DNA of 64,000 nucleotides from a virus (IMGVR_UViG_3300024331_000007:295891-359890), one strand, 5' to 3'. Positions 1,488 to 50,755 are shown, counted from the stretch's first letter. Numbers and translations: made by a program. The notes: generated by a model not told the origin, from the sequence alone.

Positions 1488-1925
1488 ATGCCTAATAACA
1501 CATACCAAACCGTTTGGAATCCCACGCTCAATGCCTTACCACAGGATGAGCGTGGGTACTACAAACTATCACATATTGCTGCTCCCAATCGTCAATCGGT
1601 TGGTCAGCCATATTTTCGTGTGTTAAATCAGGTTGCAAATACTCACAGCCCATCAACAGGTCATCCTTGGTCTACAGCCAACATCTCCAACATTCAGTTT
1701 TCTGGTCAGGAAACCCCAATTGGAAACATTGATGGATCAAACAAGAACTACAATCTGAAACATGGCAAGGTCGATCCTGCTACATTCTTTGCCACAGTCA
1801 ATGACAAGATTTTGGTTTCAAATGTTGACTACACCCTCACAGGAGCCACCTTCCAAACCCTGTCCCTGACGAACGCTCCTGCAAAAAGTTCGTGGTTCTA
1901 TGTCTATTACGCTTATGGGGTTTGA
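1488..1925 (+). CDS. Small virion structural protein
   Basis: C-terminal module (PIGNIDGSNKNYNL...VDYTLTGATFQTLSLTNAP) resembles the repeats at 4080-4497 in the giant downstream protein. Confidence 0.55.
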   Translation: MPNNTYQTVWNPTLNALPQDERGYYKLSHIAAPNRQSVGQPYFRVLNQVANTHSPSTGHPWSTANISNIQFSGQETPIGNIDGSNKNYNLKHGKVDPATFFATVNDKILVSNVDYTLTGATFQTLSLTNAPAKSSWFYVYYAYGV

Positions 1926-2599
1926 GATTTTTCCACATCTTTCCTTTTCTTAGTTTCTGAGATTTTTCTTTTAGTTTCATCGGAATGTTTCTTTCCGAAA
2001 AAATGATTTTTAGTTCCTGTGTTGGCCTTGGATATTTTGGCCTTTGTTTCTTCAGTCGCTTTCCGTCCCTTAGATTTTTCTCCGTGTAGTCTCCGCGATT
2101 CTTCATCTAACCACCGCATATTTTGTCCTTTGGACATATTATGTCGTGTCTCGTCTGAAATAATTTTCCCCTTCTTAACAATCGACATTTTGATTTTTGT
2201 TTCTTCGGAAATTATCTTTCCAACACTATTTGTATTACCCGTCAACTGCAATGCTATTTTGGTCTTTGTTTCTTCCGAACATTTTCTTCCTACGCAACCT
2301 TCTCCACCATCCGTTCTATTTTGTAAGCATCCAGTGTTAAGATCAATTCGTCCGTTCAAATGAATTTTTAGCATCTCGGCTTGAAATGCATCGGCTTCAT
2401 TCATTAGAGAAGAAACCAAAATATTATTTTTATCGATTGGTGGTTTGGTTCTATGATTTTTAGAATTTACCCTATCTAGTTTGCCCTTTCCGACATAATA
2501 AGGAGTTCCAACAACTCCATGTTTTGATGTATTAGAGCGCAAATATTCGTATACACAAAATTGCTTATCTTGTGATAATTTTGCCTCATAAATATTCAT
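1913..2599 (-). CDS. GIY-YIG-like homing endonuclease with NUMOD3-type repeats
   Basis: VYEY...YYVGKG...R and NRTDGGEG motifs followed by SEETKxKIS repeats; opposite strand to its neighbours. Confidence 0.85.
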   Translation of the reverse strand: MNIYEAKLSQDKQFCVYEYLRSNTSKHGVVGTPYYVGKGKLDRVNSKNHRTKPPIDKNNILVSSLMNEADAFQAEMLKIHLNGRIDLNTGCLQNRTDGGEGCVGRKCSEETKTKIALQLTGNTNSVGKIISEETKIKMSIVKKGKIISDETRHNMSKGQNMRWLDEESRRLHGEKSKGRKATEETKAKISKANTGTKNHFFGKKHSDETKRKISETKKRKDVEKSQTP

Positions 2600-2666
2600 A
2601 GCTGAAGTCTCCTTGGGACTTTAGGGCGATTGGGTGCTTCAACACCGCGAATCGCATCTGTATTTA
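2600..2666 (-). promoter_or_regulatory. Late promoter plus nested-hairpin leader, copy 1
   Basis: Minus strand reads TAAATA-cagat-GCGATT-CGC-GGTG-TTGAAG-CACC-C-AATCGC-CCTA-N9-GGAG-actt-CAGCT-ATG; same architecture as 28732-28794. Confidence 0.8.
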
Positions 2667-2692
2667 TCTCCAAACCACACATTTTACTAGCA

Positions 2693-2698
2693 TAAATA
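2693..2698 (+). promoter_or_regulatory. T4-like late promoter core (TAAATA), divergent from the one at 2661-2666
   Basis: cATAAATA followed by an AGGAG RBS upstream of the giant structural gene. Confidence 0.65.
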
Positions 2699-2723: not shown

Positions 2724-5700
2724 ATGGCCTTATCAAACACAGTAAATTTTCTACCACCATATCTTCAGACTGTAGCCAACCGTCGCTTCTTCGGGGCAAC
2801 ATTAGATTTGCTCGTAAATCATCCTCAAATTACACGATTCAATGGCTTTATAGGTAGAAATGTATTCAATGGTGCTGTGTTACCCGGAAACTATCTATTA
2901 GAATCCACGCCTATTCGAAGTGCTTATCAATTAGAAGCCGCGTTCATCACTCGTGACAACAATAACAACATCGTTGAAGTCTCAAACTTCTTAGACCTGC
3001 TAAATTCTTGCGCAAATAAGGACGCCGTCACAAATGCATGGAATCGTTTGCTCACCAACAATATCTATAGCTGGCGCGGGTTTAACAACCTTGACAAAAT
3101 CATCAACTACCAGAACTACTGCTGGATTGCCACAAGCGGAAACGATTGGTACTGGAAGAACAGCATTCTTATTCAGCCAGCAAACACGGTCGCCACTGAC
3201 ATTCTAGGACAGGTTTCATATACCGATCCAACAGGGGTAGAACTGCTAGACGGAATGATAATTTCATTCCCAATAACCCAACCTGCTCCATATAATGACG
3301 GCGCTGCCTACATCGTAGAAGGTATTGGCCAAGAGATTGCTCTTGTTCCAGTAACAAATATTCTGACACCAACATTCGTACAGGATCAGAACAATCCACC
3401 TGACTATCTAACAATTGAGCGAGACGCTGCTGACTTGAACTTATGGTCAAGAACAAACCTCTGGGTCCACAAAGACACAGTAGATAGCATCATTCAGATT
3501 CAAAGCGCCCGTATTCCAAATTTCGATGTTCCAACCAAGTTTACTCTTGCTAATCGTCCAATCATAGAGTTTGAATCTCTTGTGCTGTTCAATTCTGGCC
3601 TTGTTGGATTACCAGCAGCGACATATTTTGACAACTCCACCACCGATGCGTTCTACATCGTTCAGGGTCAGACAAATTTTGCAGTTGATGGATTCCAGTT
3701 GAATACTGGCGATTCAGTTATCTTTAATGCTGATCATAACCCAGACATTCGCGACAATGTATACGATGTAAATTTTGTTGATACGACTAGAATAAACCAG
3801 ATTCGTCGTCTATATCCAGTTCAGGCACTTTCCACAACAAATATCACATTGGCTGGTTTACAAACTATTGACGGCTATGTCACTCTTCAGGGTGATCGTA
3901 TTCTCGTACTTGGTCAAATCGATCAATCCCAGAACGGAATCTATCTTGCTTCTACTATTGGTTGGACTCGCGCCAGCGATTTCACTGGAACTGAGCAGGT
4001 TGGAGTTCTAGTTCTATATGGAACTGAATTTAAGAACACATACTACATTTATACACCAGCAACCATTATTAACAATGCGATGGTCGGTACTCTTTCACCA
4101 ACAGGTAACGCTCAGGTGTACACGATGCCATTTACGCCTGATCCAAATTCTCTAATGATTTGGGATAATTTCCCATTGATTCCAGAAGTGGGTTATAGCG
4201 TTTCTGGCGACACAGTTACATTCGCAACAGCACCGGGCATTGGGGATACTCTCACCTATCAAGGATGGTCGCAAGGAACTGCCCCTGTTACAACACCAGT
4301 TTCAGGTTTTCTAGTTGGCATTCAAGATGGAATCAACAGAGTTTTCACAGTTCCAACACCACCAGATGATAGTACCCTTCTTATTTGGGATAACTTTCCT
4401 TTGGTTGAAGGCGTTGGGTATACTATCGAAGGTCTAACCGTTACGTTTGACGTTGCTCCATCAACTACTGATATTCTATTTTATCAAGCATGGTCTAAGT
4501 GGACCCTTAGCGCAACAATTCCAGTTATTCAGCTTGTGCTTCGTAACACAGCACAACTACAAAACTGTGTCCTTATTACCAGTGGTCAAACCTTCTCCGA
4601 CAAAATGGTTGTATGGGACGGATCGTTTTGGGTGGTTGCATCTGAAAATAAATCAGCAATCAATCAGGCACCTCTATTCGATGTATTTGATCTATCTGGA
4701 AACAGTTTTGGAAATGTATCCGTCTATCCAGACACTAGTTTTGCTGGAAGCGAACTATTTTCATATGAGATTGGATCAGGTCCAAATGACATTGTTCTTG
4801 GATTCCCTTTGACATTCGGACCTGTTGGAAATCTTAATGATGTCATCTTTAATAACAACTATGTCACTGACACTTTCTCTTACACAGAAGTAACAACACC
4901 ACAATTCATTTCGGATGGTCGAGCACACCTCGTTGATCCACTATCTGATGTTGAAAATATTTTTGATGCTTGGCAATATGTTCCATGTAATTTAGAGTTG
5001 TATCAAAATATTCTCGTAACTGGTCTTTCAACCATTACATTTGCGGGTAATCTGCTTGTTAAGTCAACCCCAAATACTCAGCAGACGCAGGTATTCGTGG
5101 ATGGAACTCCGCTTGCGCCATCTAATTATACTGTAACCCAAGCCAACGGAAATATCACTGTTACATTAGCCACGGCAATTGAAAGTACTAACGAAGTTGT
5201 AATTAAAATTTTGAGTACAACTCCAATACCGGGTGCATGGTATGATGTCCCCCCAGCCTTCGATCATAACCCATTGGGGGTCATGCTTACAACATTCAAT
5301 ATGGGTGAACTGCGTCTTCATGCTCAGACTGAACAAAATAATGCCAACGACACATCAGGAATCGTTGATTTGTTCCGTAACGAATATGCTGGAGTACCGG
5401 GAAGCATCCTATTTCAAGAAGCAGTAAGCATACTTCCAACATTAATGTTGTGCAACAAGACATTCGACCTTGATCAATCGCTTCGAACAGCGGGAGAAGA
5501 TTACAACTTATTCAAGCAGCGATTTCTGAACATTTCAACCCAGATTCCAAACGTCAATAATTTGACTGTTAAACAAGCGGTTGATCAAGTTCTTCAGAAA
5601 ATTGCAGCATCATTTATTACAGGTCAGCCGTGGGCAACAAGTGACATGTGCTATTGGGGAGGTACGCCACAAACAATCAGCGTAACCAATCCACATCTTA

Positions 5701-8700
5701 CAACATTCAATTTGGTGCAAACCTACGACTTCACGCAACCAAATACAAAAGAACTACATGTCTATCTGAACAACAATCAGCTTATTATTGGGCGCGATTA
5801 CACCGTGGCTGGAAACGTTCTGAGCGTTCTTGCACCATTGAACTTTGGAGATGCTCTTGTAATTTATGAAATTGCAAACACGACAGGTAGCTACATCCCA
5901 GCTACTCCAACTAAACTAGGATTGGCGCAGGCATATGTTCCGCAGATTTACATGGATTTTACCTATCAAACTCCGCGTCTTGTTTTGCAGGGTCACGATG
6001 GTAGCATAACAACTTGCTATGGAGACTATCGAGATACATTCTTGCTAGACTACGAACTACGGGTATACAACAATCTAAAGGTTGACAATCAACTTTTATT
6101 TGATACTATTCAATCTCATGTTCCAAACGGTGGAAGATGGAGAAGCGAACAGGCATCCACTAATGCCCTTATTGCTCCATACACACCATCTGAATTGTTG
6201 ACTATTCAACAACGCATGTTCTATGAATGGGCGGCAGAATACAATGTCAGCTACGTCAATAGTTTCTATGATGCTGATGATATGTTCACATGGAACTGGA
6301 GCAGCAGTCTTGACAAACTAAGTGATCACGAGCCGCTATTAGGTTACTGGAGAGGTATATATCGCTGGTTCTATGACACAGAGTACGTTAACACAAAGCC
6401 GTGGGAAGCTCTGGGTCTATCGATCAAGCCTACATGGTGGGATTCTACATACGGCGTTGCTCCATACACAGGAGCTAACTTAGTTCTATGGGAAGATATT
6501 GCTCAGGGCATCATTCGTGACCCTTCTGGTTTGCGTTTCAGCACATATGGGCCAAAAACATTCGGAGCTAACTCTGTTACCTCTGTAATTCCAGTTGACC
6601 CTTCGGGAAACTTGCTTGATCCAAACGACAGTGTTGTAGGAGTTCTTAATACGAGTGCCGCTCAAAATGATTTTATTTTTGGTGACGGAGCGCCAGCAGA
6701 AGAAGCATGGAGACGTAGCAGCATATATCCATTTGCTCAGTTGCGAACACAGATTCTACAGAACCCTCTTTTCATGTGTGGAGTTCTATGGAACACAAAT
6801 AACTATCTTCCAACAGTCGGACTGAATCAGTTTAGATTTGATGGTAACTTCCTCGGAAGTATCAGCCAAGTCACGCTCAACAGCGTTGATGACAATGGTT
6901 CTGCGCTTGTAAATAGCATTCTGAACTACAGCATTGAATACATGCGCCGAAATGGTCAAGACCCGGCACTACTTCGCACAGCCATCAATAACACAGGTGT
7001 ACAATTAATGTATCCGTTGGGTGGATTTTCCGATGCAACCGATTTGATTGCATTTGGATCACCAAACAATCCTACTGACGTAGGTGCAGCAGAGCTAATT
7101 CCAGTTCAGGATTATACTCTCTTCTTGAATGAGAGCACTCCAACCGGGACTCTAAACTACAGCGGTGTTGTTGTTAATATAACTACCTCGGGCAGTTTTC
7201 AAATTTCAGGTTACAACAAAGTAAATCCATTCTTCACAATATATCCAGCCAATGCAATTGGACCATATGTGCAAATTGGGGTTTCTCCAAATTTCTATCG
7301 CTATCCTACTGCTTTCAGCACAACTCCGCAAGTTGTACCGTACAACACTATATTTTCAGATATTCAAAGCCTAATCAACTTCTTAGCTGGTTATGAAAAG
7401 TTTTTGACCATAAATGGAATTACATTCACCACAAATACATCGCAAACCCAAGTTGATTGGCAAGCTGCCGCAATTCAGTTCATCAAATGGAGCCTGACAA
7501 ATTGGGGGACCTCCATTCCGCTATCACTGGTATTGAATCCTAGCTCGTCTATTGTTCAGTACAACGCATCCTCTGGTACTCTGGCTAGTTTGACTGATCC
7601 CCTATCAAGTCTTGTACTTGATGTTAACGGCTCTGTTATCACTCAACAGTTCTTAGACGTATTTCGTGATGTTAACTCGGTAACAATTACTCACCAAGGC
7701 GGAGGAATCTTTGCTTGTATCGCCGCTGATATTGTTAGCTTTGAACATCGCGTTGTTTTTGATAACATTACGGCATTTGACGATACTATCTATGATCCTG
7801 TTTCTGGAATCCGCCAAACTCGTTTGACATTTTCAGGACAGAAAAGCGCAAACTGGAATGGAACGTTGGACAGTCCCGGCTTCCTAATCTGTACTAAATC
7901 AGTTCAACATTGGAATCCAAACCAAGATTATCTATTTGGTACATTGGTTCAATTCAAGAACAACAATTATGTTGCAACTCAGGATGTAATTGGTGCCGCA
8001 ACTTTCCAGTATGCACAGTTCCAGCTAATTTCAACAGTATTCACGAATAGTATTTTGCCTAATCTATCGTTGAAGGCTCAGGACTATCTACAATCATATA
8101 ACGTAAACTATCGTCCGTTCCTAACTGACCTTGTAAACCTACGCAATAACACAATTGGTTATATTGAACGCGATTGGTTAGCTATTCTTGACATCGACTT
8201 AGGGGCGCAAACTGCATTTTACAAGGGATGGATCAAAGAAAAGGGAACTCTTAACTCACTTAACAGCTACGGAAGAGGGTCAACACCACAACTGAATACC
8301 GTTGTTGCTATTAATGAAGAATATGCCATGAAGGTTGGCATATATGGGAGTGACTTGCGCACAGGATATGGTGATGTTAGCTTACCACCAGCAATCAATA
8401 CTCAGAATCCTCTTGTAATCGCCTTTGTTTCGTCACCGAACATCAAGGATGCTAACAGTATTCAGGTTACACCAAACAGTTTGTACGAAAAATCTGCAAA
8501 TTGGACAAATGACTTTATTCAGTATTACGGAAATCTTGAATTGGAAACTAGCAGCCTCATAAGTGGTGGTCCTGTAATCCCACAAGAACTAATTAACGCT
8601 GCTTCCGCATCGATACCCGGCTTCATCAAGACAGATGAACCTGCATTATTCTTTCCAACTGTACCTGATATGATTTTTGGCGTTCAGGAAAGCGTATTAA

Positions 8701-10658
8701 AGATTGCTGAGAATGGTGGTAGTTTCTGGATTGAAAATAACCAGTTAGCGCCCGGTCCTAACCAATGGGATGTTCTCACATTTAGTCCTGTGAGCACAGC
8801 TATATCGTCAATCACACAGGTAAATTCAAATGCCATCTCCTTTATTCTATCAACTGATATTGGAGCAAAGGCAAATAGTGCAATCGTCATCGACTATACA
8901 GATGTTGGTTCGAATATTTCCATTCGAGGAACATTCCTTGTCAATGATTACTTCATTGCTCCGTTTAGAACAGCAAATACCTCTGGTTATGCAAACCTAA
9001 TTGTGGCCACAACTGCTGGTCAGTTTGGAAATGTGTTCATTACCTATCCAAACCCTGTTCCAACAAGCGACATTTATGTTTCCCGCAGTCTACGTTCCAA
9101 TAGCATTGCAGAAGCACCTATTGTTCCTGCCGATTCAACACAATATGTCACAAACGACAAAACAGGCGAGGCCGCTTACAATCTCACTGTACCATATCAG
9201 ACGGAAATCACGTACGCTGACGTATCGGGAAGCATTGCCATCAATTCGATTGCATACGACAGCCCAAATCAGATCATTTGGTGTGGCAAGCCAGCATCGA
9301 TACCTACAGGTGTTGTGGAAATGCGCGTTGTTGGGGCTGAACAAGAACCTAGCGGCGAAGTTCTTCCAACCATCAATACTGAAGTTTATGTAATTCAACC
9401 TAAGAATCCAAGTTCTATAAATCTCGGAAACGCGGTTGTTGCCGCAAACAATTTTGCCGCCGTATCAGCAGATGCAAACTCCTTACCGGGACAAATCTAC
9501 ATCTGCGCCAACAATCCTCGTCACGCGCCATCCGTGTTGCAGATTCTAAATGCGAATACCGCCGCTCCATATGTTATTACTGACATGGCAATAAGCAGTG
9601 ATGCAAACTGGCTCTATGCAGTACAACAACCAACTGGTAACATTGCTCAAATCGCCGTGTTCGCATTGGAATCCAATCCAAATATTGGCCAGCCTTGGTT
9701 CCCTGTGTATCCAATCGTTTCAACTACTGCCAACACGTCTATTACTGTTGGAGAAATTGTTCCAGATGCATTCTCTGTTACAGTTGAAATTACAGACAAT
9801 AATGATCTATCCAGCCGAGTTTTGATACCGAACTATGAATACACAGTGGCTGGTAATATCATTACTGTAAATGTTGCCGCTGCTGGAACAACTTACATAG
9901 GTGATGTTCACCATACTACGACTGTAACTGGTCTATCTGAATACTACAAATATCAGGGAACAATAATTACTTCGGCGTATGGCCTTGATTCGTTCAATGC
10001 TGCAAGTAATTTTGGTGCGTCGATTGCATGTGATGCACTTGGAACAACAATTGCTATTGGTGCACCAGCTAATGGCGGGAATGTTGTGGTGTTTTCTCGT
10101 ATTACTGAGAATCAATATCTACAAACAACAACCAGCATCGTTACGCCTGTCAATCCATTCAGCACTATTACACAGGTAAAGGTAAATGGATTAATCGTAT
10201 CTCCATCGCTATCATTTAGTCCAGCATTACCCGCAGGTACATTGGTTCAGATTGAAGGTTTTTGTTTCAATGTTGAACAGGTAATATCCGCACCAAACCC
10301 AACTGACTTAGGATTTGGCACTAGTGTTGCTATTCAGAATAACCAACTTGTAGTTGGTAGTGTTAACACCGCTGTAGGGAACCAATACAGCAAGGGATCG
10401 GCTTATCTTTACGCTCTTGACACGTCCGTTACCAGCACAAAGATCATTCCAATTTCGGATTTGACTCTTTCAACCTCGCCATTCATGATAAACAGTTGGG
10501 TTATCACTCCACTGGATAATACTCTTTCAGGTCTTGTTACCGCCATCAACGCTGGAAGCGGATATACAGGCGTACGTGCTTCTGTTCAAGGAATGAACCT
10601 CGTCTTAAATATCAATCCAGCCCTTCACACGTCAGGAGTAGGGTTTTTAGGCGCATAA
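2724..10658 (+). CDS. Giant virion structural protein (baseplate wedge-like), 2644 aa
   Basis: Very long ORF in the structural module; beta-rich; contains the common tail motif TTNITLAGLQTIDG...GDRILV...QNGIY...WTRA and repeated small beta modules. Confidence 0.7.
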   Translation: MALSNTVNFLPPYLQTVANRRFFGATLDLLVNHPQITRFNGFIGRNVFNGAVLPGNYLLESTPIRSAYQLEAAFITRDNNNNIVEVSNFLDLLNSCANKDAVTNAWNRLLTNNIYSWRGFNNLDKIINYQNYCWIATSGNDWYWKNSILIQPANTVATDILGQVSYTDPTGVELLDGMIISFPITQPAPYNDGAAYIVEGIGQEIALVPVTNILTPTFVQDQNNPPDYLTIERDAADLNLWSRTNLWVHKDTVDSIIQIQSARIPNFDVPTKFTLANRPIIEFESLVLFNSGLVGLPAATYFDNSTTDAFYIVQGQTNFAVDGFQLNTGDSVIFNADHNPDIRDNVYDVNFVDTTRINQIRRLYPVQALSTTNITLAGLQTIDGYVTLQGDRILVLGQIDQSQNGIYLASTIGWTRASDFTGTEQVGVLVLYGTEFKNTYYIYTPATIINNAMVGTLSPTGNAQVYTMPFTPDPNSLMIWDNFPLIPEVGYSVSGDTVTFATAPGIGDTLTYQGWSQGTAPVTTPVSGFLVGIQDGINRVFTVPTPPDDSTLLIWDNFPLVEGVGYTIEGLTVTFDVAPSTTDILFYQAWSKWTLSATIPVIQLVLRNTAQLQNCVLITSGQTFSDKMVVWDGSFWVVASENKSAINQAPLFDVFDLSGNSFGNVSVYPDTSFAGSELFSYEIGSGPNDIVLGFPLTFGPVGNLNDVIFNNNYVTDTFSYTEVTTPQFISDGRAHLVDPLSDVENIFDAWQYVPCNLELYQNILVTGLSTITFAGNLLVKSTPNTQQTQVFVDGTPLAPSNYTVTQANGNITVTLATAIESTNEVVIKILSTTPIPGAWYDVPPAFDHNPLGVMLTTFNMGELRLHAQTEQNNANDTSGIVDLFRNEYAGVPGSILFQEAVSILPTLMLCNKTFDLDQSLRTAGEDYNLFKQRFLNISTQIPNVNNLTVKQAVDQVLQKIAASFITGQPWATSDMCYWGGTPQTISVTNPHLTTFNLVQTYDFTQPNTKELHVYLNNNQLIIGRDYTVAGNVLSVLAPLNFGDALVIYEIANTTGSYIPATPTKLGLAQAYVPQIYMDFTYQTPRLVLQGHDGSITTCYGDYRDTFLLDYELRVYNNLKVDNQLLFDTIQSHVPNGGRWRSEQASTNALIAPYTPSELLTIQQRMFYEWAAEYNVSYVNSFYDADDMFTWNWSSSLDKLSDHEPLLGYWRGIYRWFYDTEYVNTKPWEALGLSIKPTWWDSTYGVAPYTGANLVLWEDIAQGIIRDPSGLRFSTYGPKTFGANSVTSVIPVDPSGNLLDPNDSVVGVLNTSAAQNDFIFGDGAPAEEAWRRSSIYPFAQLRTQILQNPLFMCGVLWNTNNYLPTVGLNQFRFDGNFLGSISQVTLNSVDDNGSALVNSILNYSIEYMRRNGQDPALLRTAINNTGVQLMYPLGGFSDATDLIAFGSPNNPTDVGAAELIPVQDYTLFLNESTPTGTLNYSGVVVNITTSGSFQISGYNKVNPFFTIYPANAIGPYVQIGVSPNFYRYPTAFSTTPQVVPYNTIFSDIQSLINFLAGYEKFLTINGITFTTNTSQTQVDWQAAAIQFIKWSLTNWGTSIPLSLVLNPSSSIVQYNASSGTLASLTDPLSSLVLDVNGSVITQQFLDVFRDVNSVTITHQGGGIFACIAADIVSFEHRVVFDNITAFDDTIYDPVSGIRQTRLTFSGQKSANWNGTLDSPGFLICTKSVQHWNPNQDYLFGTLVQFKNNNYVATQDVIGAATFQYAQFQLISTVFTNSILPNLSLKAQDYLQSYNVNYRPFLTDLVNLRNNTIGYIERDWLAILDIDLGAQTAFYKGWIKEKGTLNSLNSYGRGSTPQLNTVVAINEEYAMKVGIYGSDLRTGYGDVSLPPAINTQNPLVIAFVSSPNIKDANSIQVTPNSLYEKSANWTNDFIQYYGNLELETSSLISGGPVIPQELINAASASIPGFIKTDEPALFFPTVPDMIFGVQESVLKIAENGGSFWIENNQLAPGPNQWDVLTFSPVSTAISSITQVNSNAISFILSTDIGAKANSAIVIDYTDVGSNISIRGTFLVNDYFIAPFRTANTSGYANLIVATTAGQFGNVFITYPNPVPTSDIYVSRSLRSNSIAEAPIVPADSTQYVTNDKTGEAAYNLTVPYQTEITYADVSGSIAINSIAYDSPNQIIWCGKPASIPTGVVEMRVVGAEQEPSGEVLPTINTEVYVIQPKNPSSINLGNAVVAANNFAAVSADANSLPGQIYICANNPRHAPSVLQILNANTAAPYVITDMAISSDANWLYAVQQPTGNIAQIAVFALESNPNIGQPWFPVYPIVSTTANTSITVGEIVPDAFSVTVEITDNNDLSSRVLIPNYEYTVAGNIITVNVAAAGTTYIGDVHHTTTVTGLSEYYKYQGTIITSAYGLDSFNAASNFGASIACDALGTTIAIGAPANGGNVVVFSRITENQYLQTTTSIVTPVNPFSTITQVKVNGLIVSPSLSFSPALPAGTLVQIEGFCFNVEQVISAPNPTDLGFGTSVAIQNNQLVVGSVNTAVGNQYSKGSAYLYALDTSVTSTKIIPISDLTLSTSPFMINSWVITPLDNTLSGLVTAINAGSGYTGVRASVQGMNLVLNINPALHTSGVGFLGA
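4080..4497 (+). repeat. Tandem ~70-aa module duplication inside the giant protein
   Basis: SLMIWDNFPLIPEVGYSVSGDTVTFATAP...YQGWS versus TLLIWDNFPLVEGVGYTIEGLTVTFDVAP...YQAWS. Confidence 0.85.
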
Positions 10659-10679: not shown

Positions 10680-13600
10680 ATGTTTGGTAATAGCCTAAAC
10701 AGCAAATTTGTGCTTGTGGATTCTGTATCTGCTACGGACCCCGCTGCCTCAAAATTCGGCCAAAATATTGAATGGCTCGGCACTGACTTGTTTGCTGTCA
10801 CCAGCAATCTTACAAACCCTTGGGTTGGTGATGATCTTAGTTTTTCTGATGGAGCCTATTTTGACGGCGGTCATACCCAGTTCGGACAGTTATTTACAAC
10901 ATTCAGCCAAAAAGTTGATATTTTCCAAGTTCTCGATACAAATAGAACATGGATTAACTCAACGGACGATATCTTAAATCCTGTTCCTGTTGCCACAATT
11001 CCTATTACTGGTGACTCGACTACAGATGTTGTCTATTCTGGTGCAATCGACAATTTATTTGTGTCTGATGCTGGGAATCCTGCCGAAGCTATAAAGATTT
11101 TCAATAATCCTTCCCTTGCACATGGGTGGGCTGTATTTACTGCTCAAGAACAGCGCCTAGATTCAGGAAGCATCAGTCGAGCATGGATTTATGATTCAAT
11201 CACCAGAATCAAATTAGCAGACCTTGAGGTTGTTGATCTATATGCTGGCATATTACCGGGAACAATTGCCGCTCAACTCGATTTTGTCTGTGATATTGAT
11301 CCAGCTATCTACAATATCTCTCAATGGATACCGGGAACTTCTTATAAAATTGGTGATCGTGTAATCTATAACGGTCTAACCTATCAAGCCTTGTTTGCTG
11401 GCAAGAGCGGAAGCATGTTTAACACTGCTCTATGGACATTAATTCCCGCTAATACAAATACAAACGCAGAAGGTATCGTTCGGTGGGGTTCAGAACAGGT
11501 TGGTAGAACGTGGTTTAAAACTGCAAAACTAAAGGTCATAAATGCACAGTTGGGCACTCTAACTGAACGAGCACAAAATTGGAATCAATGGTTTCCAAAT
11601 GTTGCAATTGAAGTTTATGAATGGGTTAACAGTTCAGTTCCACCATCTCAATATATCAGCAACACAGACAACGGATTTATCCTTGATCCGAATTGTGCGT
11701 TTACATTCAATCCAGCAACAGCACAATACGGATTCTGGGTTTTTGGTAAGGACACCCTTGGTCCAATTCATAATCAAACAGCAGCACAATTGATCGGTGA
11801 CATTATAGATATTCCGGGTTCTGGAATACCGATGATCACCGCTATCGATACTAATGCAGTTGCTGTTTGGAATATCAATCAGTTCGTATCTGCCAATACC
11901 GTTGTACTTCATATTGATTATGTCAACGAGTCTGCCAATAACCAGCTTCATAACGAATTTGCTCTCATCAGCAACGATGGATCAAAGTCATGGTACAAGA
12001 CCGACATCTATCCTAAGTTTGTGGATAGCCTATCGGGCGTGTCTGAAAATAATCAGCTTGTTCCAACCTACACGCTGCCAATTCAGCAACAGGCTGGCAT
12101 TCTAAACAATCCAGTTCAATCGCTGTTTGTTAACCGCGTAACTGCACTTGACATTTATTTCTCAGTCATCAATAAGGAAATTGCTAATCTTGCAATTGCT
12201 ACATCTGCTGTAATTTCAGCATTGAGCGCAGAAGACCCTCTACCTACTTCAGGTTTTAATCAGGAAGTTCCAAATCGCGATGTCCTGAATGAACTCGACC
12301 CTTCATTGTTTCCGTCGAATTACCGTATTCTTGTGGACGAAGACGACACTCTCACTCCAGTTCAATGGAGCATTGTTGCAAACGTTGATAATAACTGGCA
12401 GATTGTTGAACATCAACTTTATAATCTTGTAAATAATTGGGAGTATGCAGACTGGTTCGCGAAAAATTACACCAATGCTACACCAACCTTTATTTTGGAA
12501 AATCCCGGCCAACTATCCCAGATATCATATGTAGCTGGCGACATTATTCAGATCAACAATAACGGAAACGGTAACAAAGTAATCTACCTTGCCGTTATTA
12601 ATGACATTGATCCAGCGGTCACTGAGCTTGATCCTATCTTCATTCAAAACGGAACTATTCAATTCCTACCAAATCTTTATGACTTCTTAGATAGTGGAAT
12701 TGGTTTTGACAATCAGGGATTCGATAGTCAAGGATTCGACAACGATCCTTACATTGCTATTCGTTTAATTACACAAATACTCAACGATACTGTATTTGTT
12801 GGAAGCAACACTCTTACAGCAGCGGCAGATGATGGGTTCTTTGCAATCCTCAACTACATCTTCTTTGAAAATGAAAATCTCGATTGGTTGTTTAAAACTA
12901 GCTTTGTTACGGTTGATTACAACAATCGCAATTTGGATGTTCAAGGAACATTCCAGCCTGATAACCAATCTTCAATTGAAGATTTCGTCAGCGAGACATT
13001 GCCATTCCATACTCGTGTCCGTGAATTTAGAGACACTTATTCCAGCAACGATTACGCAAATGTTGGAGCAGTTGATTTCGACCTTCCATCTCAATACGAT
13101 TCAAATTTTGCTAATATTGTTTTAAACCTTACAGCAAATCCAAAACTGAATATCGATCTTCCCCTTAGTGCATTCAGAAGAAATGTGGGCGTTGCGCTGG
13201 ATAGTCGTTCTGTTTATGTAACCAGCAATGGTATTCCTGCTGCACCAACCATGCCTTCATTCATTCAGGATTGGAATTTTGGCATCGTTAAGAAACCAAT
13301 AACTGAGCCTATCAAATATAGTACCGTTCCAAATACACTTGGACCTATCGGTGTTGCTATTGATGGTGTTCCATTCTTTGGACCAAATAGCGGAATTACT
13401 GAAACTCTATACCAGTATGGAAATATAAGTGCTCCTTTTGCAAATATTGCCAACTCTGCAACATACACTATCAATAGTGTATTCGCAGCAGAAAATCAGG
13501 GCGGCGATCCCGGTCTCGGTTATACAAACCTAAAAGGTCAATACATATATCAGGCAAATCCTTATGCTATGGCAAATGCCGCTGTTGGTCTACATAGTCC

Positions 13601-15749
13601 AATTGTCGGCTATGCATGGGACGGAAATCCTATTTATGGTCCGTTTGGTTATGCAAATGCAGATGGAACTGGCGGAATCATTCTCAATACCAGTAGCTAT
13701 CAGCTATCGACAACTCCGCGCCTAGATAAAACAGGACAGCCGTTTATCAATGGGTTACAAATGGCGCAGTATGCAGCGCCAAACGGAAACTACATTGAAG
13801 ATTTTATCTATATTCCTAATTCTGGAACACTCGATGAATGTAACGGAAGATTTGTTGTTACCCCGGAATATCCAAACGGCGTTTATGCTTACTTTGCATC
13901 AGCTAGTTTTGAGAATGTAATCTTTATCGATACTGAACTTAACGATGACATCATTACAGAAAATGTAATTAATCTCATTACTGAAAATTCAGCTAATGTT
14001 GCATCTCCGCAACTTCCAGCTTATCCATATGTTATAGGACTAGCATATAATTCTCGACCATTTGGAGTACAATATACTTACATCAACGGCGTTAATACCC
14101 CAGTTTACATCAATGGAAATGTCACTGTTCCTTTAACTCCATATATTGATACTGTAAATCTAATTCGCACTCCAGACGGCTCAGTTGCTTCTGATCCATT
14201 GACTCTATTGGAACCCGTATACTCTGCGTGGAGTAATAATCACTCATACTCAATAGGCAGTATGATTGTTGAACGTCCCGGTTCTGGATATTTGGAATTG
14301 TCATCGGACATTATCGTTACACCGACAAACAATGTGGTCGCATCTGTCTCCAGCTTACAATTAGTTTCTGCAAACATTGTAGCTACAGGTAACAATTACT
14401 CCATCGGCGAAAATATCTCTGTAATTGGAGGAATATTTAATAACGTCGCGACTATTCAAGTAACGAATGTAAATGTTGCTGCAAACAATTCCATTGTTAG
14501 CTTCATGCTCAACCCTGTTACCGATGAGGGATACACAATTATTCCTTCTAACATCGCAAACGTAGCAACATCCTCCATTAATGGTAACGGATCAGGTGCT
14601 ACCTTTAATGTTGCGTTCGGTCTTGAATCAATTTTTGTTTCAGAAACTGGTAATAACTTTACATCTACACCGTCTGTAACGGTAATCGATTCTAACGCAA
14701 CCATTCCAGCAACTGTTTATCCTGTATTGGAAAACAACACAATCCGCAAAATCAATACCACAATGGTATTTGATCGAGTCGAGGCACCTGAGTATCCGGG
14801 TGTATTTGTAAATGCTGGAAACTTCGTTACATCATATCCAGTTCCAACCGGAACGATATTTAATTCCAACGATTCTACTGCTGGTCAAATTTCGTTGAAC
14901 ATCTCATGGCGTCCTGAGCTAATAAGCGACACCTCTCTAAGTACTGAATACTCCAGATTTGGTAATACTGCTGGTGTTTTCAACAACGAAATTGGTCAGT
15001 ACATTACGGCAAACGCAAGCAGCCCTGATCTTGACAAGATTAGCATTAATGCAAATAGCTTCACAGTAGAGTTTTTCATGAACTTCAGCAACTTAGATAA
15101 TCCAATCGGAGTCATGGTTGATACTCGCGCAAATGTAGCCAGCGCGAATGGTTTGGTTGTATTCCGTAGTGGTAGCAACCTGTGTGTGGGTTCAAATACA
15201 AATGTTGCCATTATTTCGACTGGTATTCTTCCATTCACCACAAATGAATGGGAATACATTACCGTACAAGGTAACGGCGGAAACATTTATGCTTATATGA
15301 ATGGTCAATTGGTTGGAACTGCAAACATTGCATTCGACTACACTGATCACAATTTGACTTTGGGGGCTGATGTTGCTGGTGGAAATGTCAGCACTGGATA
15401 TATGGACGAAATTCGTTTGACAACCCAACACAATCGCTATGTACCGGGCATCATAAATATTACTGTTCCTACTGCCGCATTCCCACGATCAATCACTGTT
15501 GATCCATTCTTGCTTCCGCAGCATACACCAATTCTATGGGGATTTGAAAACTTTGTTAATGAAAGCGGAACAGACATTACGTTTATATCTGTTAACGCAC
15601 AAACACTCATCAGTGATTTGTCGTGGAATCAAAAGAAGCTGCAACTTGTAAATTACGGAAATGATCTTGTCATTGACGGGTCCACTATCAATGAACTCGA
15701 AAATCCTCAGACAAGCCAAATTTTAGAAGTACGATTGAATCAAGGATAA
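10680..15749 (+). CDS. Large virion/baseplate protein with a YHYH-like domain and a C-terminal LamG/ConA-like domain
   Basis: GPIGVAIDGVPFFGP, HSPIVGYAWDGNPIYGPFGY and GTLDECNGRFVVTPEYPNGVYAYF (YHYH family); FTVEFF...LTLGAD...GYMDEIRLT (LamG). Own TAAATA (10656-10661) and RBS. Confidence 0.75.
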   Translation: MFGNSLNSKFVLVDSVSATDPAASKFGQNIEWLGTDLFAVTSNLTNPWVGDDLSFSDGAYFDGGHTQFGQLFTTFSQKVDIFQVLDTNRTWINSTDDILNPVPVATIPITGDSTTDVVYSGAIDNLFVSDAGNPAEAIKIFNNPSLAHGWAVFTAQEQRLDSGSISRAWIYDSITRIKLADLEVVDLYAGILPGTIAAQLDFVCDIDPAIYNISQWIPGTSYKIGDRVIYNGLTYQALFAGKSGSMFNTALWTLIPANTNTNAEGIVRWGSEQVGRTWFKTAKLKVINAQLGTLTERAQNWNQWFPNVAIEVYEWVNSSVPPSQYISNTDNGFILDPNCAFTFNPATAQYGFWVFGKDTLGPIHNQTAAQLIGDIIDIPGSGIPMITAIDTNAVAVWNINQFVSANTVVLHIDYVNESANNQLHNEFALISNDGSKSWYKTDIYPKFVDSLSGVSENNQLVPTYTLPIQQQAGILNNPVQSLFVNRVTALDIYFSVINKEIANLAIATSAVISALSAEDPLPTSGFNQEVPNRDVLNELDPSLFPSNYRILVDEDDTLTPVQWSIVANVDNNWQIVEHQLYNLVNNWEYADWFAKNYTNATPTFILENPGQLSQISYVAGDIIQINNNGNGNKVIYLAVINDIDPAVTELDPIFIQNGTIQFLPNLYDFLDSGIGFDNQGFDSQGFDNDPYIAIRLITQILNDTVFVGSNTLTAAADDGFFAILNYIFFENENLDWLFKTSFVTVDYNNRNLDVQGTFQPDNQSSIEDFVSETLPFHTRVREFRDTYSSNDYANVGAVDFDLPSQYDSNFANIVLNLTANPKLNIDLPLSAFRRNVGVALDSRSVYVTSNGIPAAPTMPSFIQDWNFGIVKKPITEPIKYSTVPNTLGPIGVAIDGVPFFGPNSGITETLYQYGNISAPFANIANSATYTINSVFAAENQGGDPGLGYTNLKGQYIYQANPYAMANAAVGLHSPIVGYAWDGNPIYGPFGYANADGTGGIILNTSSYQLSTTPRLDKTGQPFINGLQMAQYAAPNGNYIEDFIYIPNSGTLDECNGRFVVTPEYPNGVYAYFASASFENVIFIDTELNDDIITENVINLITENSANVASPQLPAYPYVIGLAYNSRPFGVQYTYINGVNTPVYINGNVTVPLTPYIDTVNLIRTPDGSVASDPLTLLEPVYSAWSNNHSYSIGSMIVERPGSGYLELSSDIIVTPTNNVVASVSSLQLVSANIVATGNNYSIGENISVIGGIFNNVATIQVTNVNVAANNSIVSFMLNPVTDEGYTIIPSNIANVATSSINGNGSGATFNVAFGLESIFVSETGNNFTSTPSVTVIDSNATIPATVYPVLENNTIRKINTTMVFDRVEAPEYPGVFVNAGNFVTSYPVPTGTIFNSNDSTAGQISLNISWRPELISDTSLSTEYSRFGNTAGVFNNEIGQYITANASSPDLDKISINANSFTVEFFMNFSNLDNPIGVMVDTRANVASANGLVVFRSGSNLCVGSNTNVAIISTGILPFTTNEWEYITVQGNGGNIYAYMNGQLVGTANIAFDYTDHNLTLGADVAGGNVSTGYMDEIRLTTQHNRYVPGIINITVPTAAFPRSITVDPFLLPQHTPILWGFENFVNESGTDITFISVNAQTLISDLSWNQKKLQLVNYGNDLVIDGSTINELENPQTSQILEVRLNQG

Positions 15750-28102: not shown

Positions 28103-28126
28103 AAAGCCTGATTCGTCAGGCTTTTT
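28103..28126. terminator. Intrinsic terminator between convergent genes
   Basis: AAAGCCTGA-TTCG-TCAGGCTTTTT. Confidence 0.85.
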
Positions 28127-28731
28127 CAATCTCTACCTAATATTCTCTTTGGAAGCATTCCATTTATCCAATTATCGCCTATTGGTTTTTCTTTAGTTGA
28201 AAGTTGGATTGATCCATTATTATACCATTTACATCCTTTTGTGGATGGTTTTTGGTTTAACCTCCCTCGTCTCCATCCTATAGGACAGGTTGGTAAAAAT
28301 TTAGTGTCGGTTCCGTTGTTGTACCACTTTCTTATTGAATTTGTTCTTGATCTTCTCTTCTTAGAATTTTCTCTTACAATCCCAGAATGCTTTTTACCAA
28401 ACATCGGATTTCCAGAACCAGAATTACTTTCTCCGCCATTTGTTCTATTATGTAAACAACCGGATTTCAGATCATACCTACCATATAGGTAAATTAGTAG
28501 CATTTCAAGTTGTAAAGCCTCTACTTCTAGCATTTTGTCTTGAATTATGATTATGTTAGATTTGTCGGCTGGAACCGCTATTTTATGATATTTGCTATAC
28601 GCCCGATCACGAACTCCTTTACCAATATAGTATGGAGTTCCAATCAGTCCATTTTTTGAATTTTTGGACCTTATATATTTATATACATAGAATTTGGGTT
28701 CTTGTGAAAAGGATGATACACTAAATATCAT
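28126..28731 (-). CDS. GIY-YIG-like homing endonuclease, paralogue of 1913..2599
   Basis: FYVYKYIRS...GTPYYIGKG...NRTNGGES, NPMFGKKHS and WYNNG repeats; start reassigned to the ATG at 28731 using the shared leader. Confidence 0.85.
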   Translation of the reverse strand: MIFSVSSFSQEPKFYVYKYIRSKNSKNGLIGTPYYIGKGVRDRAYSKYHKIAVPADKSNIIIIQDKMLEVEALQLEMLLIYLYGRYDLKSGCLHNRTNGGESNSGSGNPMFGKKHSGIVRENSKKRRSRTNSIRKWYNNGTDTKFLPTCPIGWRRGRLNQKPSTKGCKWYNNGSIQLSTKEKPIGDNWINGMLPKRILGRD

Positions 28732-28794
28732 AGCTGTTGCTCCAAGAAGCGATAGGGTTGGTGGGATCGTCAAATCCGCGACCAACAGTATTTA
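28732..28794 (-). promoter_or_regulatory. Late promoter plus nested-hairpin leader, copy 2
   Basis: Minus strand reads TAAATA-ct-GTTGGT-CGC-GGAT-TTGACG-ATCC-C-ACCAAC-CCTA-N9-GGAG-caa-CAGCT-ATG. Confidence 0.8.
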
Positions 28795-28811: not shown

Positions 28812-29345
28812 ATGAAGATTTCTGAAGTTGAAAAAAATATCAGTACAGCCTTTGTTGATTTAGATGGCGTTATTGCGTGGCTAGATAAAGGAGTCGCGGA
28901 TTACAATAATATCTCTTTGGTAGAGCAGGAAGCCGCAGGATGGGATAACGAATATTGGCACAATGTTTTAGATACAGCTAATATTGAGCAGTTTTTCGCC
29001 AACCTTGAATGGATGCCCAATGGAAAGAATCTAGTCGGATGGTTTCAACAGAGACATTTACCAATGAAGTTTCTTACAAGACCAGTCAAAGAGCCAAACG
29101 AGGCTGCTTGCATCGCTGGTAAGAAAAAATGGCTTCGCAGCAAAGGTATAGGAAACATTCCAGTAATTTTCGAAAGGGATAAAGAAAAATATGCCGTAAA
29201 TTCAGATGGAACCGTAAACATTTTGATAGATGACCACAGCGGCAACGTTCAAAAATTTAGTGATGCTGGGGGCGTGGGGATTCATTATAGAGATTTTTGG
29301 TTTCCAGATGTGATAGCAAAACTTGAAAATCTCTATAATCTATAA
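28812..29345 (+). CDS. HAD-family 5'(3')-deoxyribonucleotidase (NT5C-like)
   Basis: FVDLDGVIA, FLTRP, GKKKWL and ILIDD motifs. Confidence 0.85.
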   Translation: MKISEVEKNISTAFVDLDGVIAWLDKGVADYNNISLVEQEAAGWDNEYWHNVLDTANIEQFFANLEWMPNGKNLVGWFQQRHLPMKFLTRPVKEPNEAACIAGKKKWLRSKGIGNIPVIFERDKEKYAVNSDGTVNILIDDHSGNVQKFSDAGGVGIHYRDFWFPDVIAKLENLYNL

Positions 29346-49337: not shown

Positions 49338-49366
49338 TTGATTTTACCACCAAACTTGTGTATACT
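49338..49366 (+). promoter_or_regulatory. sigma70-like promoter
   Basis: TTGATT-N17-TATACT. Confidence 0.65.
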
Positions 49367-49393
49367 AGATGTATGAGGAATAAGGTGAGTCGC

Positions 49394-50755
49394 ATGAAGC
49401 CCGTAATGACAATCTCAAAAGGCAATATAACTGTGTCCAAGGCAATGCGCAGCATGGCCGCAAAGGGTGCTTCTCTCAAGGAACAAAAGGCTACTCGTTT
49501 GACCGACAAGCCGATTCCTAAAGATTTGATGAAGAGTGTTGAAACGAAGATCACGAAGGCTCGTGTGAAGATGTTGTTCCAACAGCCATTTTTTGGTACG
49601 CTCGTGACTCGTCTTCAGATTTTCGCTGCCGACTCGTGGCTTCCGACGATGGCCGTTGACGGCAAGTATCTCTATTTCAATCACGCATTTGTGGATGCGC
49701 TGGAAATGGACGAACTTATTTTCGTCTTTGCGCACGAAATTCTCCACATGGTTTATGATCACATTCATCGTGGCGCTGGCCTCAATCACGATCTGTACAA
49801 TTGTGCAGCCGACTATGTTGTCAACGATGAATTGATTCAGGTGAATGTTGGCAAATTCCCCACAACTGTGCCGGGATTGCATGACATTAAATATCGTGGG
49901 TGGAGCAGCGAAAAGGTCTACGAAGATTTGCAGAAAAAGCAGAAGAATGATCCGAATGCTGGCAAATCTTTGGAAGAGATGCTTGACAAGTTGTTGGATG
50001 AGCACCTTGACCCGTCCAGTGGACAGGGACAGCAAGGCAAGCAGGACGGCAAGGGAAGCGCACCAACTGCCGCTGGCCCCGCGAAGCTTACGGAAGAGGA
50101 ACGCAAGCAGCTAAAGGCTGAGTTGAAGCAGGAGATTATCAATTCTGCGCAGATGGCAGGAATCGGTAACCTTCCCGCTGGCATTCAGCGCATGGTTAAC
50201 GAACTCATTGCGCCAAAGATGGACTGGAAGACACTCCTCCAGAGCCAGCTTAACAGCATTGTTCCTGCCGATTATAGTTTCTTGCGCGTCAATCGCAAGG
50301 GATGGGATTTGGATGCGGTTCTTCCCGGTATGACTGAGATGCCGATGTTGTCGATTGCTTGCGCTCTTGATATGAGTGGTTCAATCAGTCAGAAGATGGT
50401 TCAGGAATTTCTTTCGGAAGTCAAGGGCATCATGGATCAGTACCCAATGTACGAAATCCGTGTGTTCTGTTTCGATACCGCTTGCTACGCTGACCGCACT
50501 TTCAGCAGCGACAATGGCGAGGATATTCGAACCTATGTACCGAAGGGAGGAGGCGGAACTGACGGCGGAGCGATCTTCCGTTACATGAAGGATGAGGATT
50601 TTGTTCCCCTCAAGTTGGTAATCTTCACTGATGGTTACGTTGGTGACTTCGGCGACGAGAACTACTGCCCTACCGTTTGGATCATCAAAGGGTCCAATGT
50701 CGTCCCTCCGTTTGGTACTCATGCCTATTTTGATGAGACTCCAGACGAAGATTAA
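49394..50755 (+). CDS. Metallopeptidase-like (HExxH) plus vWA domain protein, MoxR partner
   Basis: TMAVDG...FVFAHEILH...N.AADYVVN; MIDAS-like DMSGS and GGGGTDG; start moved downstream of the promoter. Confidence 0.85.
   Translation: MKPVMTISKGNITVSKAMRSMAAKGASLKEQKATRLTDKPIPKDLMKSVETKITKARVKMLFQQPFFGTLVTRLQIFAADSWLPTMAVDGKYLYFNHAFVDALEMDELIFVFAHEILHMVYDHIHRGAGLNHDLYNCAADYVVNDELIQVNVGKFPTTVPGLHDIKYRGWSSEKVYEDLQKKQKNDPNAGKSLEEMLDKLLDEHLDPSSGQGQQGKQDGKGSAPTAAGPAKLTEEERKQLKAELKQEIINSAQMAGIGNLPAGIQRMVNELIAPKMDWKTLLQSQLNSIVPADYSFLRVNRKGWDLDAVLPGMTEMPMLSIACALDMSGSISQKMVQEFLSEVKGIMDQYPMYEIRVFCFDTACYADRTFSSDNGEDIRTYVPKGGGGTDGGAIFRYMKDEDFVPLKLVIFTDGYVGDFGDENYCPTVWIIKGSNVVPPFGTHAYFDETPDED

Follow-up and report, generated by a model that had tools for sequence, protein, structure and literature searches.

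A conserved two-hairpin cassette at the 5' ends of homing-endonuclease genes in uncultured phages, a candidate source of antisense RNA

The window analysed here (IMGVR_UViG_3300024331_000007:295891-359890) comes from the end of a 359,890-bp IMG/VR record of a giant soil phage, of which it makes up the final 64 kb. The family B DNA polymerase of this phage shows 40-45% identity to those of the jumbo phages of the Phosso, Atu_ph07 and 121Q/Rak2 group. The window contains two copies of a cassette about 85 base pairs (bp) long that includes the first four codons of a homing-endonuclease gene. Both copies sit on the minus strand, where an earlier note on this DNA had placed them, and the genes behind them are GIY-YIG-like paralogues with NUMOD3 repeats, sharing 53% identity over their N-terminal 96 amino acids (aa). 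The cassette is best read as a portable control module of many unrelated nuclease families in uncultured phages. It most likely provides an antisense restraint of the nuclease, a type of control not described for such genes. The elements of the two copies are as follows, with distances given in nucleotides (nt).

Copy 1:
1913..2599, minus strand, GIY-YIG-like/NUMOD3 homing-endonuclease gene, 228 aa, N-terminus M-N-I-Y
2661..2667, minus strand, late-promoter-like box ATAAATA (P_HEG), candidate promoter of the endonuclease mRNA, from the sequence
2666-2661, minus strand, TAAATA
2655-2650 with 2631-2626, minus strand, outer stem GCGATT/AATCGC
2649-2647, minus strand, CGC, with inner stem GGTG/CACC
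2625-2621, minus strand, CCTAA, then GGAG
2604-2601, minus strand, CAGC
2599-2597, minus strand, ATG
2594-2589, minus strand, TATTTA in codons 2-4
2626..2655, plus strand, hairpin 1 (HP1'), from covariance and pairing statistics
2602..2624, plus strand, hairpin 2 (HP2'), from the alignment and consensus fold
2588..2594, plus strand, ATAAATA, candidate late promoter P_as, reverse complement of TATTTAT at endonuclease codons 2-4

Copy 2:
28126..28731, minus strand, GIY-YIG-like homing-endonuclease gene, 201 aa
28789..28795, minus strand, late-promoter-like box CTAAATA (P_HEG), 2 nt from hairpin 1
28794-28789, minus strand, TAAATA
28786-28781 with 28762-28757, minus strand, outer stem GTTGGT/ACCAAC
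28780-28778, minus strand, CGC, with inner stem GGAT/ATCC
28756-28752, minus strand, CCTAT
28736-28733, minus strand, CAGC
28731-28729, minus strand, ATG
28727-28722, minus strand, TATTTA
28757..28786, plus strand, hairpin 1, outer stem GTTGGT/ACCAAC, inner stem GGAT/ATCC
28734..28755, plus strand, hairpin 2, CUGUUGCU / AGCGAUAG, 8 bp with two G·U
28721..28727, plus strand, CTAAATA, candidate P_as, reverse complement of TATTTAG

Both sites show, letter for letter, the layout given in the earlier note, namely TAAATA, a 6-bp stem, CGC, a 4-bp stem, a 6-nt loop, C, the closing arm, CCTA(A/T), GGAG, CAGC and ATG. The core pattern has two zero-mismatch sites in the window, copies 1 and 2, and three matches when one with two mismatches is included, against 0.45 expected from shuffled sequences. 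A genome-wide scan for the structure alone (6-bp stem, CGC, closing arm, YCTA) found 15 copies, and a covariance model recovered a 16th, in which CGC...C is replaced by CAC...T. In IMG/VR, a pattern scan with a pre-filter that required CCTAW...CAGC...ATGNNTATTTA, followed by the covariance model, gave 79 matches, 65 of them distinct with the own-genome copies included; seven of the matches to the model, whose E-values are rough, had not been picked by the pattern. All 65 distinct copies form the 5' ends of homing-endonuclease genes, as the proposed link to such genes implied. The element had been described as shared by two GIY-YIG genes; both of these copies are real, but they are two of 16 in the genome and of 65 overall, which belong to at least five nuclease families.

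Among cultured phages no counterpart was identified. Searches of cultured phages, by megablast with the locus and by blastn with the 83-nt element, yielded no real match, and the cassette is absent from the 11 cultured phage genomes, nearest jumbo relatives included, that were scanned with model R1 (S-SRM01, Phosso, Atu_ph07, Vibrio 2.275.O, 121Q and XaC1) or with the antisense model R2 introduced below (S-PM2, B23, S-N03, RN05-S and ACG-2014f). The suggestion that it belongs to no named RNA family agrees with the scans against Rfam 15, which gave no match at the gathering threshold in the window and none at the cassette in eight loci, at E up to 10 on either strand. Elsewhere in the genome, at ~51,318-51,402 (plus strand; L018:828-912) and just downstream of an endonuclease gene, there is a weak, sub-threshold match to the Rfam family freshwater-2 (30 bits against a gathering score of 49.9, E=0.18).

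Every pair of hairpin 1 covaries among the 65 sequences, in line with the earlier proposal of a selected structure maintained by compensatory changes. Two further details of that proposal need revision, as the spacer of "exactly 9 nt" belongs to a second covarying hairpin, of which it makes up the 5' arm and loop, and the 3' arm of this hairpin overlaps GGAG, which had been considered unpaired. Read on the sense strand, hairpin 2 has stem variants such as CACT/AGTG, CGCT/AGCG, AGTC/GACT and TGTC/GACA, among others, consists of 3 to 5 bp and covers one or two bases of GGAG. The non-Watson-Crick cells of the sense alignment comprise 47 A·C and 7 G·U. Because an A·C on one strand corresponds to a G·U on the other, this excess indicates that the antisense strand is the one that folds. 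The isolated pair of hairpin 1 is G:C in 42, A:U in 12, A·C in 11 and G·U in none of the copies on the sense strand, that is GC in 42, AU in 12 and GU in 11 on the antisense strand. The minimum free energy is lower on the antisense strand in 63 of 65 copies (mean -19.8 versus -14.4 kcal/mol on the sense strand), and the RNAalifold consensus reaches -25.3 antisense versus -16.0 sense.

In the antisense consensus, hairpin 2 has 8 bp, and the invariant CAGC and YCUAW supply the pairs at its base (CUG-N/N-UAG). An antisense covariance model, R2, was built and all copies were realigned to it; the resulting alignment contains standard pairs in 99.5% of 1221 cells, compared with 29-47% in slid controls and 73% in shuffles. 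The base pairs C:G, U:A and G·U of HP2' are each found in 65 of 65 copies, and the next two pairs inwards vary (AU39/UA13/GU10/GC2, then UA25/UG20/CG13/AU5). HP1' is 99.7% paired, and each of its 11 pairs shows compensatory change. The wobble pairs of the antisense strand, about 120 cells, become A·C mismatches when read on the sense strand. In copy 1, HP1' consists of a 6-bp outer stem, an isolated G:C between two bulged G, an inner stem of 4-5 bp and a variable 6-nt loop; HP2' has a stem of at least 8 bp, with CUG/UAG and the invariant G·U at its base, and CUCC, which is complementary to the GGAG of the endonuclease gene, is found in its 5' arm and loop. On the minus strand, hairpin 2 reaches a maximum of 4-5 bp in copy 1 (AAGTC/GACTT) and of 3 bp in copy 2 (GCT/AGC). 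Selection of the fold is therefore assigned, with high confidence, to the strand opposite the nuclease gene. Two other structures were considered and rejected: a tRNA-like minihelix, which calls for a 7-nt T-loop consensus and a 3' NCCA, as the loop varies in both sequence and length and the tail reads YCUAW rather than CCA, and a pseudoknot between the loop of hairpin 1 (often YUG) and CAGC, as this loop is too variable and CAGC is accounted for by the antisense stem.

The earlier note took the folded molecule to be the leader of the endonuclease mRNA. In T4, the late box occupies positions -13 to -6 and transcription starts at the 6th nucleotide after it (PMC1524935). TAAATA is located upstream of hairpin 1 in 64 of 65 copies, at a spacing of 3 nt in 23, of 5 nt in 20 and of 2 to 44 nt overall. 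A leader of this kind could act as a 5' stabilising stem-loop and/or as the operator of an RNA-binding protein of the phage or the host, with hairpin 2 presenting the Shine-Dalgarno sequence. The 20 copies with the 5-nt spacer suit it well, their predicted start being the first base of hairpin 1 (2655 in copy 1), ideal for 5' protection; it is also consistent with GGAG lying in the loop and 3' arm of hairpin 2 and with the conserved bulges and linkers. In 28 copies, however, the outer box is 2-3 nt from hairpin 1 and the T4-type start falls at stem position 3-4 (28783, base 4 of the outer stem, in copy 2), and here the first two pairs of hairpin 1 are Watson-Crick in 28 of 28 and covary. Pairs that are kept upstream of the late mRNA start indicate that the selected fold is not that of the late endonuclease mRNA. 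The wobble asymmetry, with one of the sense A·C mismatches invariant, points in the same direction, as do the isolated pair, which is never G·U on the sense strand, and the 8-bp stem that forms on the antisense strand only and shrinks to just 3 bp in one third of sense copies. The mRNA leader is thus quite unlikely to be the molecule that folds.

Conservation extends beyond the ATG to TATTTA, which follows it after 0-2 nt and, read on the opposite strand, gives the late-promoter core TAAATA. The last base of codon 2 is T in each of the 15 genome copies with TATTTA, and the 16th copy has TACTTA. The hexamer is kept in frame-shifted variants, ATG-TATTTAG at other loci and ATG-A-TATTTAG in window copy 2, where it lies one base nearer the ATG and in another reading frame (M-I-F-S); a hexamer that survives such a shift indicates that TATTTA is a nucleotide-level signal and not a peptide. 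Open reading frames (ORFs) of at least 100 aa that begin with ATG-N0-2-TATTTA are, in this genome, those of cassettes only, with the single exception of an internal ATG within a cassette endonuclease gene (genome 254904). TAAATA itself is depleted genome-wide (256 observed, 467 expected), which points to avoidance of spurious late promoters throughout the genome. Half of its sites are non-coding and 40% lie no more than 100 nt upstream of same-strand ORF starts, a clustering that is expected of a promoter word.

The inner box is separated from GCUG by 4-7 nt, so that a T4-type start is predicted 0-2 nt before the 8-bp hairpin; in copy 1 it is 2600, 1 nt ahead of GCUG (2601-2604). Both the outer and the inner boxes have A at -1 in 80-84% and never T, resembling the other late boxes of the genome. 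The promoter scan found no sigma-70-like site at the cassette. The PeSL cassettes of T4-type phages were rejected as a match, since the boxes here are of the late TAAATA type and not of the early sigma-70 type. At the other end, the first 9 nt past HP1' on the antisense strand have a U fraction of 0.54 and contain at least four U in 60 of 65 copies, and copies with a remote outer box have runs of U5-U8 in the spacer after HP1'. In copy 1, the U-rich AUCUGUAUUUAU comes next to HP1' on the plus strand, and the two together are a candidate terminator of an antisense RNA.

The outer TAAATA is complementary to TATTTA in 60 of 65 copies, and this long-range helix is named P0. Its inner extension averages 1.08 against 0.62 in permuted sequences (p=0.0005) and 4 bp in copies with spacers of 10-15 nt. 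P0 reaches 11-15 bp in total in nine of the 60 copies, spans the start codon where the inner extension is 5-7 bp, and has a predicted probability above 0.5 in 21 of 60 folds. It shows the arrangement that defines the T4-type masks, with the late promoter within a 5' arm that pairs with the start region. The T4 I-TevI type of control, dismissed in the earlier note as not explaining the element, may therefore be relevant to it.

In the cassette's own genome, the genes that it heads comprise the main GIY-YIG/NUMOD3 family, two other GIY-YIG types, two HNH (phrog_655), a DUF723/DUF4379 zinc-finger nuclease (phrog_559) and a 106-aa ORF. The 56 distinct complete downstream proteins contain NUMOD3, GIY-YIG, HNH, HNH_3, TnsA-like and zinc-finger nuclease domains, and the cassette is common to at least five unrelated nuclease families, GIY-YIG being represented by several subfamilies. 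Autoregulation by the endonuclease itself is unlikely, as unrelated nuclease families share the cassette. All downstream proteins have the N-terminus M-x-I-Y, and in some GIY-YIG genes the xIY is duplicated at the junction. Three such IMG/VR genes of the classical GIY-YIG type (L059, L108 and L127:2756-3514) have M-x-I-Y followed at once by their own (S/T)-(I/V)-Y-K, for example MSIY-SIYKATN, which looks like a recombination scar at the cassette join. Beside two cassettes on the same contig as the last of these, L127:1547-2605 matches intergenic DNA of hundreds of unrelated phages and is probably a tRNA cluster.

Four paralogues of the main family in the genome have no cassette, indicating that it is not required for carrying such a gene. 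In the cassette-less paralogues at ~95,400-96,010 (minus strand), 290,144 (plus strand) and 9,876-10,208 (minus strand), TAAATA is found before the ATG at distances of about 5, 6 and 30 nt, and a clean terminator hairpin precedes one of these genes. The 16th cassette (103,401-103,718, plus strand; locus L033) heads the 106-aa ORF, which belongs to no known family. A cassette-less GIY-YIG paralogue lies immediately downstream of it (start ~103,767) and begins with ATG AAC ATT TAC, having CATTTA instead of TATTTA, an arrangement suggestive of the insertion of an ORF between the cassette and the nuclease gene. In the window, a large HNH endonuclease gene (49358-50755, plus strand; phrog_1314, 465 aa) lies on the main strand and has no cassette.

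Nuclease genes of at least five unrelated families have the same module attached at one point, after codon 4, and this, together with the duplicated xIY, could also be taken as the mark of a signal at the DNA level, either a strand-specific hairpin in single-stranded DNA or an 85-bp homology block used in the exchange of endonuclease ORFs, the promoters being incidental. Hairpins of DNA tolerate G·T as well, and hairpin 1, being repeated, causes a break in the assembly graph. The cassette has no associated recombinase or transposase, however, and since the stems differ between copies there is little uninterrupted homology. A DNA signal would also leave the start-compatible promoter boxes and the position of the anti-Shine-Dalgarno sequence unexplained, and it is considered very unlikely. 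The related idea that the hairpin marks the end of a mobile cassette has no direct support; no empty-site allele was seen among the DNA contigs examined, in which assemblies break at the repeated hairpin 1.

The features that surround the two window copies bear on what the inner promoter may serve:
2693..2698, plus strand, late-promoter box (GCATAAATAT) of the divergent 2644-aa gene (ATG 2724), from the sequence and the ORF
28103..28124, both strands, bidirectional terminator-like hairpin AAAGCCTGA CGAA TCAGGCTTT
28812..29345, plus strand, divergent neighbour, 5'-nucleotidase-like (NT5C/phrog_2643)

In the own genome, 13-14 of 16 cassette endonuclease genes are antisense to their neighbours, including both window copies, as had been noted for these two. 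Among the 57 scorable copies of the genome and IMG/VR, the upstream neighbour is divergent in 35, with its ATG often 25-70 nt past hairpin 1, and co-oriented in 22; the co-oriented flanks are core genes, among them terminase subunits, the sliding clamp and the tail tube. The prevalence of antisense and divergent arrangements would fit an inner promoter and structured RNA that serve the neighbouring gene as an outward late promoter and a stable 5' untranslated region (UTR), so that expression of the gene downstream of an antisense insertion would be kept up. Copy 2 offers an example, since the gene at 28812..29345 has its ATG 26 nt past HP1' with no late box of its own between, and T4 endonuclease genes embed promoters for downstream genes (PMC2988022). 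In the 22 co-oriented copies, however, the antisense RNA would oppose the upstream gene. The divergent neighbour of copy 1 needs no P_as, because its own box sits downstream of HP1', and the U-rich tail past HP1' disfavours read-through. The neighbour orientations counted here suggest that feeding a neighbouring gene is possible at some loci and cannot be the general function, and service to the neighbour is an unlikely explanation of the cassette as a whole.

The terminator-like hairpin at 28103-28124 separates the convergent ends of the copy 2 endonuclease gene and the plus-strand gene upstream, and suggests that this nuclease gene is transcriptionally boxed in. Such a hairpin at the 3' end of the gene, and at the other end a hairpin 1 flanked by a U-rich tail on the antisense strand and an A-rich tract on the sense strand, could be expected if hairpin 1 were an insulator or terminator against transcription from the endonuclease side and the rest an ordinary translation-initiation region. 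This is highly improbable, as it leaves the 8-bp HP2', the invariant G·U, the fixed inner box and the conserved bulges by the loop-distal stem unexplained. Elsewhere around the copies, two giant plus-strand ORFs directly follow copy 1 (2724-10658, 2644 aa; 10680-15749, 1689 aa), a small ORF before the copy 1 endonuclease gene (1488-1925) shows a weak match to the N-terminal part of the T7 tail fibre, and 23775-26084 (plus strand) encodes an ATP-dependent protease of Lon/AAA+ type (phrog_4871, E=2e-197).

For the cassette as a source of antisense RNA, the complete model combines facing late promoters with two products, the nuclease mRNA and an antisense RNA of about 70 nt with two hairpins, which lies over the 5' UTR and the Shine-Dalgarno sequence. 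This model is given an even chance of being correct in full, and the existence of a discrete antisense RNA from the cassette is somewhat more probable than not. The sequences show the structure, its strand and distribution, its linkage to endonuclease genes and the conservation of TATTTA at the nucleotide level; firing of both boxes, an end of the antisense RNA after hairpin 1 and repression of the nuclease gene are inferred from them. The outer TAAATA would drive the endonuclease mRNA, while the inner box, followed by 5 nt, the start and then GCUG, would drive the antisense RNA, which would be composed, in order, of 5'-(A)G, an 8-bp hairpin with the anti-Shine-Dalgarno CUCC, a single G, an 11-bp bulged hairpin and a U-rich tail. 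By position this RNA is complementary to the ribosome-binding region, and it is predicted to span from -1/-2 of the AUG to the 5' end of the mRNA, the entire endonuclease 5' UTR. Most likely it pairs with the mRNA, beginning at complementary loops, which would block ribosome binding and/or make the duplex a target of RNase III, in the manner of IS10 RNA-OUT on RNA-IN. One feature of RNA-OUT-type control, a stable fold selected on the antisense strand, is found here, and the sequence of the inner box is consistent with another, an own promoter opposite the target gene near its start; the obligate G·U pairs would keep the antisense RNA stably folded and its mirror image, the mRNA leader, weakly folded. 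P0 may add a second layer of control by masking the start region in those read-through transcripts in which both of its arms are present.

Several observations weigh against this model. P0 is weak in most copies (6-8 A·U pairs) and has no strand bias, wobble counts being similar both ways. The tail after HP1' always starts with A and is moderately U-rich, the stem is bulged, and a simple terminator scan calls hairpin 1 on neither strand. Codon 4 is TAC in seven of 16 genome copies, giving GTAAATA as the inner box, and G is found at -1 in 12% of the other late-type boxes. At copy 2 the antisense transcript may be the mRNA of the divergent gene. Owing to the pre-filter, the conservation of CCTAW, CAGC and ATGNNTATTTA is an unbiased measure only in the 16 genome copies and the seven matches found by the model alone, and the counts of pair cells exceed the number of independent events because copies share descent.

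A broader proposal, possible though doubtful, is that the cassette is an autonomous, portable sense/antisense switch that has been recombined onto many unrelated endonuclease families in uncultured T4-like and jumbo phages. Each copy would have a private antisense RNA, as the stems differ between copies, tying nuclease translation to template copy number and timing, and the invariant G·U and the bulged G's would be recognised by an RNase or an RNA-binding factor. If so, phages would have a general means, previously unrecognised, of living with heavy loads of selfish nucleases.

Phages commonly carry homing endonucleases as selfish genes, and what is known of their control comes from only a few T-even cases, each interpreted as an mRNA hairpin. 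Antisense-RNA control, so far known for transposases and toxin genes, would be extended to them if the model is true. It would also provide a new RNA family for annotation and account for the odd conserved M-x-I-Y N-termini and for the presence of an antisense late box inside the genes. As a compact module with two promoters, the cassette is directly testable with T4 late transcription.

Among known systems, lambda OOP and the antisense RNAs of type I toxin-antitoxin systems (Sok, and bulged stem-loops of the CopA type) are short cis-antisense RNAs. Like the predicted RNA, they have bulged stems and recognition loops and act on the mRNA of a harmful gene; they differ in having no sequence or family relation to it and in that they work in plasmids or temperate phages, and not on homing endonucleases. 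Conserved 5'-UTR hairpins before Vsr-like and GIY-YIG endonuclease genes have been described in marine "fractured genes" by Dassa et al. 2009 (PMC2677866). They share with the cassette two mutually complementary conserved motifs, TATAAATA, an association with several endonuclease families and an origin in environmental phage DNA, and, compared by description only, may be the same cassette or a relative. They were read there, however, as translational hairpins of the sense strand, and, unlike at the "fractured genes", no split inteins were seen beside the cassette copies examined. CfrI of cyanophage S-PM2 is an antisense RNA of ~225 nt opposite a homing-endonuclease gene and psbA (PMC2984593). 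It shares with the predicted RNA its place opposite the free-standing homing-endonuclease gene of a T4-like phage, but CfrI is longer, covers the ORF and the end of psbA and is no repeated portable module, and R2 finds nothing in S-PM2.

The start-site masks of the T4 family with an embedded late promoter (I-TevI, I-TevII, I-TevIII, segB and Aeh1 mobE; PMC2988022) resemble the cassette in having TATAAATA just upstream, in a promoter that is the 5' arm of a helix (here P0) with its 3' arm in the start region, and in late transcripts that lack, or here would lack, the promoter-containing arm. Unlike these masks, P0 consists mostly of 6-8 A·U pairs over codons 2-4 and not over the Shine-Dalgarno sequence, and it encloses two extra covarying hairpins selected on the opposite strand; the T4 examples have no known antisense partner. 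In IS10/Tn10, the 69-nt RNA-OUT is transcribed from pOUT within the 5' end of the transposase gene and pairs with the translation-initiation region (PMC5006887). The cassette differs from this system in having two hairpins instead of one, phage late (gp55-type) boxes as candidate promoters, an overlap that takes in the whole 5' UTR and stops just before the AUG, and many unrelated nuclease families. It is similar to RNA-IN/RNA-OUT in that the nuclease gene of a selfish element has a candidate facing promoter at its very start and a start region predicted to be covered by a stably folded cis-antisense RNA, about 70 nt in size.

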